Positions 13,353 through 15,270 of a stretch of 64,000 nucleotides of DNA are shown piece by piece. How positions within the stretch are numbered: the stretch's first letter is position 1; the number at the start of each line of letters is the position of its first letter. The stretch is from contig VGOD01000005.1 in NCBI GenBank assembly GCA_016876015.1, positions 2,950-66,949 of the forward strand, given 5' to 3'. Under the pieces are notes generated by a model. The model ran no database searches and was not told where the DNA came from. It saw only the letters and a list, made by a program, of their open reading frames with translations. Both the position numbers and the translations under genes were made by a program. The DNA comes from Chloroflexota bacterium. GTDB taxonomy: Bacteria > Chloroflexota > Anaerolineae > CG2-30-64-16.

Positions 13353-13467
13353 CGCGATTACTTCGTGGTCAAGGCGTGCGAGGGTGATCCGAACGTGGCC
13401 TTCGCCTGGCGGTTGAGTGCGACGCGCAAGGGATATGCCGGGGTGCGGCTGGAAGAGGTCAAGTGGT
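13353..13467 (+). pseudogene. Relic of head-A 3' end (orphan fragment)
   Basis: Translates [37 protein letters not shown]. Aligns to 10608-10721 of copy 1. Confidence 0.75.
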
Positions 13468-13842
13468 GAGCTTTTGGCGCACGAACGTAAGCACCTGGCG
13501 GATGGCGTGCTCCGGGTTGGGATCCAGGTGGCTCTCGACCACATTGCCCTCGCTGCCATCGTGAAAGTGCCGGGGGAAGGTCGCCACGTGCCGCCACCAG
13601 TCGTGCGGGGCATTGTCGTGGCGGTAGAGGTCGCCAGCCGCAATCAGCCGGCGTTCCCAATGGTAAGAATAGCGGCCGCTGCTGGACAGGAACACATCGA
13701 GGAGGGAATGATCCACCAGGTCGAGGCGTAATTTGAGTGGATCGCCGGTCGGCAAACAAAGCACCTGTGCGCTGACGACGATATCGGCGAATTCGGCGGC
13801 CGCGATCTCACCCAGCGCGTTGTAGGTCGTTAAGCTGGACAT
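13459..13842 (-). CDS. TumE-like (DUF6516) putative toxin
   Basis: [42 protein letters not shown] matches the Y.YHW...R.DNAPH....FPHH.H signature. Paralog at 24702..25190. Confidence 0.5.
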
Positions 13843-14095
13843 CCAACTCCTCCAGGCGCTCGGTCAGGTTTTCGGCGGCAATCAGGTCTTCCCAGGCCGG
13901 ATGCTCGACCACGACGCCGTGGGCGATCCTGGCCTCGAGATCGGTCAATGAGGTGGCGCCGTAGCGGCCCAGGATCTCCAGCTTGAGTTGCATGGCCTGC
14001 CGTTTCTTGTCGTGCAGATAGCTGACCAATGCCTGGCGGAACAATTCCTCTTCGGGAAGACCCTGCGATGTTGCAATTTTCGTAAGCGTTAGCAT
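13808..14095 (-). CDS. Partner (putative antitoxin) of the TumE-like gene
   Basis: ATG 14095 MLTLTKIATSQGLPEEELFRQALV overlaps the downstream TumE-like gene. Distantly similar to 25183..25461 (LEILGRYG vs FEVKFG region). Confidence 0.4.
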   Translation of the reverse strand: MLTLTKIATSQGLPEEELFRQALVSYLHDKKRQAMQLKLEILGRYGATSLTDLEARIAHGVVVEHPAWEDLIAAENLTERLEELDVQLNDLQRAG

Positions 14096-14154
14096 GCGTC
14101 CCTTCGTCCTTCGTGATCTGCGGGTTGCAATCACAGCAACCATCGGTCATTACG

Positions 14155-15075
14155 ATGCCGAGTATAGCATCAACCATCTACATTCGCAAGGAGAAAACCA
14201 ACCAGGAAACACCGAGCACGGAGGGCGAGCACGGAGGCATCGCCCCTACAGCGGCCTCGACGGGTACGATCGCCTACCAGGGCCGGCTGGCGGATGCCAC
14301 CGGCGCGCCGCTGACCGGCACATACAACATGACGTTCCGCCTGTACACCGGCGCGACCGGCGGGACGCCGCTGTGGAGCGAGCAATGGACCGGCACGAAT
14401 GGGGTGAAGGTGAGCGACGGCCTGTTCAACGTGATGCTGGGCAGCCTCACCCAACTACCAATCTCCCAATTTACCAATTCCCAATCTTTGTTCCTGGACA
14501 TCACGGTGGGGACGGACGACGAGATGCAGCCGCGCGTGCAGTTGGGCAGCGTGCCGTTCGCGGTGCAGGCGTTGACGGTGCCGGATGGGAGCGTGACGAC
14601 TGCGAAGATCGCGAATGGCGCAGTCACACAGGCGAAGTTGGGCGCGGATGTGAGTTTGGCGCCGCCGGATGGGAGTGTTACGACCGCGAAGATCGTGAAT
14701 GGGGCGGTGACACAGGCGAAGTTAGGCGAACAACCCTATTTCTTCCACGGCGCCTTTGCCACCCCAACCGAGTGGATGGCAGACGTTATCTTCAACAGCA
14801 ACTACGCTCGATTCTGTCAGATCATCGGTCGCACCTTCGCTCGGGCAGATGAACTGCAAAAGCATTATCAGCCTCAACGCGGCGTAGGTTTCCTCTACTC
14901 AGGATCGTATTACACTGGCGGCAGATATCATTCAGCAGATACGTATGTTTGGGGTAACGGTGATCCTGGAAACGGCTATAATGTCTGGAAGTATAATGGC
15001 GGAAACGGATGTTGCCCGAACGGCGCAGATGTTGGCTGGACGATGGAAACAACAGCTATCATCTGGTGCAGATAG
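14155..15075 (+). CDS. TFL family copy 3: 5'-truncated (no leader, tail or TM), stalk with duplicated DGSVTTAKI repeat, head C
   Basis: The track ORF starts at GTG 14113; an ATG lies at 14155. Homology to the family begins at [16 protein letters not shown]. Head C is Cys/Trp/Tyr/Gly-rich ([27 protein letters not shown]). Confidence 0.5.
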
Positions 15076-15270
15076 CGCGATGGAGTTTCGAATGTGGCCT
15101 TCGCCTGGCGATTGAGCGCGACGCGCAAGGGGTATGCGGGGGTGCGGCTGGAAGATGTCAAGTGAGGGTTGAATTGCAAGGCGCGGAATATGACAACGAA
15201 TCCACGGGATGGATCGAATCTGTCTCGTCGGCGCTGGAATTCGGTCAATTCGGCTGATTCGTTGTCATAG
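15076..15270 (+). pseudogene. Relic of head-A 3' end plus its 3' flank, directly after the copy 3 stop
   Basis: [24 protein letters not shown], then gagggttgaattgcaagg...ggtcaattcggctgattcg. Aligns to 10630-10825 of copy 1, about 88% identical by eye. Confidence 0.75.

Follow-up and report, generated by a model that had tools for sequence, protein, structure and literature searches.

The mosaic adhesive trimer (MAT) fibres of Bdellovibrio bacteriovorus form a set of 21 paralogues with a β-rich domain of ~125–130 amino acids after the signal peptide and two classes of C-terminus, and their tips are said to have been "swapped out in evolution" (Caulton et al. 2024, PMC10769870). Displacement of the C-terminal part and orphan cassettes are known from polymorphic toxin loci such as Rhs and CdiA (Zhang et al. 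2012, PMC3482391). Here we describe a tandem array of fibre-like genes in a stretch of 64,000 nucleotides, called the window below, from a Chloroflexota bacterium (Anaerolineae; assembly GCA_016876015.1, contig VGOD01000005.1, positions 2,950 to 66,949). A conserved stalk occurs seven times in the array, beside one leader-only fragment; the copies are spaced by ~2.1–2.4 kb, with a 3.8-kb gap before the last. The encoded proteins resemble MAT fibres in having a predicted β-rich domain behind the anchor, in the many paralogues per genome and in the two classes set apart by a common C-terminal module. A constant 5' body, a variable 3' module replaced at the 3' tip and old 3' ends lying downstream recall polymorphic toxin loci, and several incomplete copies of one surface-protein gene, partly conserved and partly variable, with copy 3 lacking its 5' end, recall pilE/pilS of Neisseria. 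Phage tail fibres and R-type pyocin fibres have a C-terminal fold like the one predicted here and receptor-binding tips that are swapped modularly at conserved linkers.

We consider the array to be probably an opportunistic mosaic of recombination and decay, a partial graveyard of a MAT-like fibre family that contains one tip-replacement scar, at copy 3, and one remnant associated with an insertion sequence (IS), at copy 2. In the commonest class of the family (class I), a membrane anchor is followed by the N-domain or stalk, linker repeats, a variable shaft and a conserved C-terminal tip domain (CTD) of 111 amino acids; class II proteins have the stalk with another tip in place of shaft and CTD. 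We use relic for a partial CTD left as an orphan. The features that carry the argument are the following, ORF standing for open reading frame.

9501–10721, + strand: copy 1, a class I fibre gene, with stalk (9726–10100), linker, variable middle (10098–10385) and CTD (10386–10718).
From 9501, + strand: leader of copy 1, with ATG at 9501 and an in-frame TGA at 9552–9554 (CGA in copy 2); the ORF resumes at GTG 9630, followed by the anchor.
10722–10826, + strand: 3' flank of copy 1, a 22-nucleotide spacer and an 83-nucleotide hairpin (10744–10826; dG −46.2 kcal/mol, z −3.3).
11939–12817, + strand: copy 2, with leader, anchor and stalk intact, then 93 amino acids of the shaft module head B (12536–12814), up to the IS fragment.
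12851–13339, − strand: IS1-family-like transposase fragment, C-terminal part only, its 5' half missing on the side of relic 2.
13346–13469, + strand: relic 2, CTD residues ~72–111, then W and TGA; it adjoins the stop of a convergent TumE gene.
14155–15075, + strand: copy 3, 5'-truncated, homologous to the other copies from 14223; stalk 14257–14631, linker repeats 14572–14644 and 14656–14728, head C 14722–15072, TAG 15073–15075.
15076–15165, + strand: relic 3, CTD residues 83–111 and TGA, directly after the TAG of copy 3.
15166–15270, + strand: 3' flank of copy 3, spacer and hairpin (15188–15270; dG −41.2 kcal/mol, z −2.3).

Comparison of the 9–27 kb region with itself matched 10601–10720 to 13346–13465 with 90.0% nucleotide identity over 120 nucleotides (E 1.8e-41) and 10631–10825 to 15075–15269 with 89.7% over 195 nucleotides (E 2.6e-71), the latter extending for another ~105 nucleotides past the original stop. 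Between the two relics, identity is 88.6% (13378–13465 and 15077–15164; E 8e-27), and tblastn placed relic 2 at CTD residues 73–111 and relic 3 at residues 83–111. A preliminary description of the window had reported that the last ~29–38 codons of copy 1 recur behind copies 2 and 3, that the homology behind copy 3 continues ~105 bp past the stop (15166–15270 and 10722–10825) and that an HNH gene follows in both of these places, and all of this is borne out: 29–39 codons recur, the two flanks are 90% identical, and the genes for HNH endonucleases behind copies 1 and 3 lie at 10912–11340 and 15245–15700, both on the − strand. One position needs a small correction, as the D of DYFVV in relic 2 lies at 13356 rather than 13353.

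Between copy 1 and relic 2, differences at first, second and third codon positions number 1, 2 and 10; the corresponding counts are 1, 2 and 7 between copy 1 and relic 3 and 2, 1 and 8 between the two relics. The tails of copies 1–3 thus differ by ~10%, mainly at synonymous sites, and neither relic contains an internal stop. This third-position bias and the lack of internal stops suggest that the three tails descend from three once-functional paralogous CTDs, which would have diverged under purifying selection and been inactivated comparatively recently, rather than being recent copies of the copy 1 tail.

Contigs from other samples (L003, L004 and L055–L061) are 99.9–100% identical to the window across the junctions and have the same order of parts, so the junctions are not assembly artefacts. 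About ten independent assemblies share one fixed layout from 1 to 22121 and differ only by point differences and one indel, in the second HNH gene. Alleles in which the heads of copy 1 (head A) and copy 3 (head C) have traded places, as the preliminary description envisaged, were absent from exact-protein look-ups in other samples and from the ~ten assemblies, all of the same arrangement; these are consensus sequences, in which rare variants could be missed.

Head C starts right after the second linker repeat, the sequence running from ...AKLG into EQPYFF, and ends with ...IIWCR before the stop codon. Its homologues P0121, P0093 (L002, 10497–11519) and P0065 (L053) have the same start and stop at the same ...IWCR, and the TAG at 15073–15075 is for this reason the native stop of head C. 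In other loci, homologues of head C stand in three different 3' contexts with no CTD relic: directly before the hairpin (L052), 37 nucleotides before the next gene (L002) and 40 nucleotides before it (L053). The head and its stalk have distinct affinities: identity to copy 3 is 84% in the stalk and 65% in the head for P0121, 46% and 75% for P0122 and 50% and 79% for P0123. The GC content of head C is ~0.52, against 0.64–0.70 in the stalk. Head C would thus be a portable module. A reading of head C in terms of a diversity-generating retroelement was rejected, as the window holds no template repeat of head C.

Relic 3 is in frame with head C and flush with its stop codon, with weak nucleotide similarity that may extend it back to 15064, and head C is flanked by two segments 90–95% identical to copy 1. 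We regard copy 3 as rather likely to be a true tip-replacement scar, in which head C took the place of the shaft and CTD residues 1–82 of a class I gene. The earlier proposal that head C replaced a previous head agrees with the survival of an old 3' end and 3' flank behind it, and that heads move between stalks agrees with the relatives of head C (75–79% identity in the head, 46–50% in the stalk) and with the mosaic head F of copy 6, whose first 75 residues match the shaft of the class I protein P0032 (75%) and whose remainder matches the class II protein P0076 (74%). The mechanism proposed with it, double crossover or gene conversion with the 3' flank as one arm, finds no support: a clean double crossover of this kind would leave no CTD tail, and as the right-hand joint lies inside the CTD, it was not a homologous crossover in the 3' flank.

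We infer the following order of events, which relies on homology on one side only. Copies 1–3 would all have been class I genes. Recombination anchored in the conserved stalk and linker would then have imported head C with its own stop codon into copy 3, while the right-hand joint formed non-homologously in the CTD near residue 83. As a consequence of this non-homologous joint, 29 terminal codons together with the hairpin flank at the 3' side would have been left as an untranslated scar. Copy 3 also lacks its leader and its anchor, the latter already missed in the preliminary description, and a TumE toxin–antitoxin module adjoins the break.

Copy 2 is read differently. Although a word-index search with head B gave no match, exhaustive search identified it as a shaft module: its 93 residues match internal segments of fibre proteins of 150–2158 (mostly 500–2000) amino acids that extend well past it. 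Head B as a complete head is thereby ruled out, and since it is an internal shaft segment elsewhere, the distal part of copy 2 has been cut short. The ORF at 12851–13339 encodes a product with 33–43% amino acid identity to plasmid proteins annotated as IS1 family transposases (tblastn) and has no match among the Pfam and NCBIfam hidden Markov models (HMMs). The fragment retains its 3' end on the side of head B, and relic 2 starts ~6 nucleotides beyond the ORF; contig L003 ends inside the fragment. At its other end, relic 2 meets the TumE stop in a junction also found in L002, L041, L076 and L090, and as several genomes have this junction in common, the 3' context of relic 2 is not of local origin. 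Relic 2 is best read as what insertion of an IS1-like element and a deletion have spared of the 3' end of a class I gene: the element would have entered the shaft, and an adjacent deletion would then have removed the 5' half of the element and everything in the gene before CTD residue ~72. The head swap that had been suggested for copy 2 is thus replaced by insertion and adjacent deletion, given a relic behind a 5'-truncated IS1-like fragment and a head that is a truncated shaft.

CTD relics are not confined to the window. A scan of 185,579 species genomes by stalk patterns gave 45 loci, all but two of them in metagenome-assembled genomes of Chloroflexota and many consisting of arrays of 2–8 stalk genes. 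Using tblastn, we found 13 partial CTDs in nine loci (the window, L001, L002 and six loci of the genome scan); every one was 3'-terminal and none N-terminal only. Six relics lie 0–62 nucleotides past the stop of a stalk-bearing ORF, which has a non-CTD head in five cases and is a complete class I gene in L006. A scan of metagenomes for DNA encoding FAWRLSAxRKGY yielded 42 loci, with ~30 further relics not limited by contig ends against ~26 full CTDs when mapped at the nucleotide level. The relics elsewhere comprise the last ~15–85 codons, starting between CTD residues 27 and 96 with about half of the starts at 82–93, and several contain stops or frameshifts. CTD tails behind unrelated heads, first noticed in the window, thus recur in other organisms. 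Finding the same debris across Chloroflexota indicates that tip replacement is recurrent, and, judged from these sequences, replacement of the tip and erosion from the 5' side would thus be general in the family. In some loci a complete CTD or a first relic is followed, 60–90 nucleotides further 3', by a second short CTD relic (L006 11033–11179, L097 525–1021, L038 8523–8859); such tandem tails suggest repeated events at the same gene end.

The proteins appear to be membrane-anchored, tail-fibre-like surface proteins of a previously undescribed family, predicted to be distantly related to the MAT fibres of Bdellovibrio. A homology search with copy 1 retrieved 995 relatives, and every one with a source name is from Chloroflexota. 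More than 50 full-length class I proteins are among the matches listed, with ~80% identity in the CTD and unrelated middles, so the tail is no private feature of head A, as had been thought, but the end of a domain found throughout class I; the full-length homologues P0002–P0056 are 50–76% identical to copy 1. About half of the 120 listed homologues have only the stalk in common and carry other heads, and the linker repeat occurs in one to three copies per gene. Two class II proteins contain an H-type lectin domain (PF09458). The NCBIfam model Bdello_MAT_N (NF053851) matched the stalk of five family members with E 4e-9 to 9e-7, at 29–36 bits compared with a curated cut-off of 60 and over profile positions ~7–89 of 162 only; the stalk likewise lies directly after the anchor. 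An AlphaFold2 model of copy 1 has pLDDT (predicted local distance difference test) values above 90 in the N-domain, which is β-rich, and in the CTD. The CTD modelled by itself is a β-sandwich whose best match is to the C-terminal regions of tail and tail-fibre proteins from phages (BFVD, E 6.6e-8, 38% identity), with PDB matches to the tailspike of cyanophage Pam1 and to fibres of R-type pyocins. Because the model matches the tips of phage tail fibres, the CTD is predicted to be a fibre-tip knob rather than an S74-type chaperone, and it lacks the SDxxxK motif. Pfam gave no match to any head, the CTD or the IS fragment, even at E 10, and a profile of the class I alignment found nothing among PDB sequences. 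In the minimal members of the family (L093 320–940 and L094 40–660), only ~19 residues separate the stalk from CTD residue ~26, as if the entire shaft had been lost by a deletion within the gene.

The kinship with MAT fibres thus comes with clear differences. Exchange of variable tips is visible here in homologues sharing only the stalk, in the incongruence of heads and stalks, in the head F mosaic and in the scars, whereas the autoproteolytic S74 chaperone end with SDxxxK is found in no copy; S74-like sequence does occur at the end of distant relatives of head B such as P0147. The Chloroflexota proteins have 300–470 amino acids compared with ~900–1150 in MAT fibres, and their common C-terminal module is a predicted β-sandwich like a tail-fibre tip instead of an S74 chaperone-protease. 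Their genes form tight tandem arrays with toxin–antitoxin modules and visible scars of physical replacement, and the family, in a different host phylum, is known from genes and monomer models. Compared with phage fibres, these are chromosomal genes for anchor-bearing cellular proteins with no phage or tailocin structural genes nearby.

The neighbouring modules and the remainder of the array are as follows.

10912–11340, − strand: HNH endonuclease (Pfam HNH/HNH_5, E 2.5e-10), with partner ORF 11324–11755 (−); convergent with copy 1.
15245–15700, − strand: second HNH, with partner ORF 15666–16121/16178 (−).
13459–13842, − strand: TumE toxin (Pfam TumE, E 4e-13), with MJ0235-like partner 13808–14143 (−), in place of the leader and anchor of copy 3.
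10829–10907, + strand: repeat resembling repetitive extragenic palindromes (REP) and miniature inverted-repeat transposable elements (MITE), with copies at 16730–16808 and 21796–21874 and a related element at 16554–16633 and 19598–19677.
16066–25754, + strand: rest of the array.
Copy 4: cut after ~30 stalk residues (residues 1–29 at 16396–16482), the ORF ending at 16545.
18336–19663, + strand: copy 5, head frameshifted relative to P0061 and P0110.
20727–21731, + strand: copy 6, leader frameshifted, head F mosaic.
Copy 7: truncated at 24698.
25571–25754: copy 8, leader-only fragment.
Array pairs: HNH and partner twice, TumE and partner twice, PemK/MazF and antitoxin twice, at least two PIN genes, and a DUF3800 gene on the same strand.

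Toxin–antitoxin-like pairs, mostly on the opposite strand, are interleaved with the fibre genes over 9.4–25.8 kb, as they are in L001 and L002, the latter with HepT/MNT; by analogy with a proposal made for superintegrons, they might stabilise the repeat-rich array against deletion. The TumE module matches PF27273 in the called product of 95 amino acids. A convergent HNH gene follows nine of 25 full CTD ends and six of 47 relics, within 11–200 nucleotides of the CTD end, and only 11–20 nucleotides past it in L001, L002, L082 and L090; TumE adjoins nine relics and no full CTD. The second HNH gene, split by a 1-nucleotide indel in the window, is intact (140 amino acids) in L055 and L057, and the indel reflects either variation within the population or an error in a homopolymer. 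The HNH modules behind copies 1 and 3 have 41–59% amino acid identity in the HNH protein and 34% in its partner, compared with 90% nucleotide identity in the adjoining tail and flank. Such distant modules beside so similar flanks make the units mosaics rather than products of one recent whole-unit duplication, and tandem duplication of the whole unit is rejected as a full account of copies 1 and 3. Outside the array there is a third such pair of HNH gene and partner (29425–30269, +).

The hairpin element of the 3' flank also occurs at L001 7859–7945, L001 9226–9309 and L052 644–720, where it follows, in L001, a class I gene in one case and a truncated stalk in the other and, in L052, a homologue of head C. 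It would be a 3' element associated with the family and may serve as a terminator between convergent genes. Rfam found no known RNA on the relics or hairpins within 9–27 kb, its only hit there being a DUF3800-IX RNA motif (20364–20443, −; 57.6 bits, E 2e-10), which lies a few nucleotides past the stop of the DUF3800 gene at 19482–20357, on the opposite strand; the L001 array also holds a DUF3800 gene. The REP/MITE-like repeat is palindromic (GGATCACGAAGCCGCGAAG...CACGAAGG.CGCGAAGG) and stands just 3' of fibre genes; it also occurs beside family genes in L001, L005, L006, L010, L041 and L052, and in places is fused to the CTD end, extending the ORF by ...GLDHEAAK before the stop. A special DNA element within the CTD tail was considered and rejected, the frequency of identical codons among same-residue pairs being flat along the CTD (0.33–0.63; 0.49–0.55 at residues 61–110).

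Copies 1 and 6 have lesions only in the cytoplasmic leader (nonsense at 9552–9554, frameshift at 20640–20730) and the same GTG restart inside the anchor (NVIFTL). From internal GTG starts, both could be expressed with short N-termini, as found in some homologues. No promoter on the + strand was called for any copy, in a promoter and terminator scan that was uninformative. The distal end of the array holds an ISL3-family transposase fragment (26439–27248, within 25812–27248; 173.7 bits, cut-off 180) and a possible IS982-like fragment (25812–26273).

Several observations weigh against tip replacement at copy 3 and illegitimate decay elsewhere. No allele of the copy 3 locus from before the replacement and no donor copy of head C were found, and for this reason we infer the direction and timing of the event. 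About half of the relic starts cluster at CTD residues 82–93, which a random illegitimate joint does not predict and alignability explains only in part. The association of TumE with relics but not with full CTDs hints that some tails, perhaps relic 2 among them, may travel with a toxin–antitoxin module. The consensus assemblies could have missed rare variants in the population. Finally, what is seen at copy 3 could equally result from a simple deletion between a class II gene and a class I gene downstream of it.

This last alternative, which we regard as unlikely, holds that a class II gene (stalk and head C) was followed by a class I gene and that one deletion, from past the head C stop into the CTD, fused them, so that no head was replaced. 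Family genes do stand back to back with spacers of 37–70 nucleotides (L002 8323–11519 and L053), the arrays are rich in deletion products such as 5'- and 3'-truncated stalks, a stalk fragment is fused directly to a hairpin at L001 9226–9309, and relics always retain the 3' end, as a deletion of this kind would leave them. Deletion ends would, however, be expected anywhere in a gene of ~1.2 kb, yet 13 CTD-tail relics are seen against one or two 5'-truncated stalks, in a genome set retrieved by stalk patterns. The left ends also fall 0–62 nucleotides past the upstream stop in six independent cases, and at copy 3 the joint keeps the reading frame and directly adjoins the stop codon.

Less probable still, to our mind a doubtful explanation, is that CTD tails, at least relic 2, were carried by a mobile TumE or HNH unit with a captured gene end and mark where the unit inserted. 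The exclusive association of TumE with relics fits this, often with the same −1 nucleotide junction (the window, L002, L041, L076 and L090), as does the close spacing of HNH genes and CTD ends in four loci. But the relics at this same TumE junction start at different CTD residues (58, 72, 78 and 84), as would be expected of progressive loss from the left rather than of a cargo of constant size, relic 3 runs on into spacer and hairpin just as the intact tail of copy 1 does, and HNH genes also follow full genes.

We hold it very unlikely that the array is built for tip shuffling, with the CTD tail and hairpin and the stalk and linker as real arms for repeated exchange of tips, perhaps stimulated by HNH and stabilised by toxin–antitoxin modules, and the relic starts at 82–93 as a preferred site of crossover or cleavage. 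Least likely, and highly improbable, is a programmed cassette system in which copy 3 acts as silent donor, the stalk and the CTD tail with hairpin serve as dedicated arms of homology and gene conversion, possibly triggered by the neighbouring HNH nuclease, moves heads into an expression locus: the segments around head C with 90–95% identity to copy 1, the loss of leader and anchor in copy 3, the convergent HNH genes after full CTDs and relics and the hairpin recurring at gene 3' ends would all suit it, but copy 3 is the single 5'-truncated copy with a head, no intact expression locus is evident as every copy has a lesion, structural variants are absent from the ~ten assemblies, relics elsewhere differ in length and carry stops or frameshifts, flat synonymous-site conservation leaves no special DNA element visible in the tail, and the two HNH modules are distant paralogues, one of them frameshifted in part of the population.

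The analogies drawn in the preliminary description change with this. A locus organised like pilE/pilS has one expressed locus and promoterless, 5'-truncated donors with the variable region; here copy 3 alone resembles a donor, copies 1, 2, 5 and 6 are lesioned, the truncated copies 4, 7 and 8 are promoter-proximal pieces without heads, heterogeneity was not seen in the consensus assemblies L003, L004 and L055–L061, and no G-quadruplex or other recombination-initiating element was identified. Nor does copy 3 suit the part of silent donor, as its scar is the mark of a recipient. The variable modules also differ from those of polymorphic toxins in being fibre tips or adhesin-like domains: the heads have no match to a toxin family, and in place of a C-terminal toxin with an immunity gene the neighbours are convergent HNH, TumE, PemK and PIN pairs. 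The orphan-module analogy fails likewise, as orphan cassettes carry a piece of the conserved body, whereas the relics consist of the last codons of the displaced tip and are non-functional stubs.

With tip replacement as the preferred reading of copy 3, two regularities stand out: joints cluster around CTD residue 85, and convergent HNH and TumE modules are closely associated with the ends of the genes. For genome annotation, the short ORFs and "hypothetical proteins" of such arrays are debris of one family. That family, large, unannotated and tail-fibre-like, extends over Caldilineae, Anaerolineae, Ardenticatenia and Thermoflexales within Chloroflexota and is apparently related to the MAT adhesins. 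Its arrays let the replacement of tips by recombination be seen through physical scars and not from comparison of paralogues alone, and they offer an entry point to how non-predatory, often filamentous bacteria diversify their surface recognition modules.

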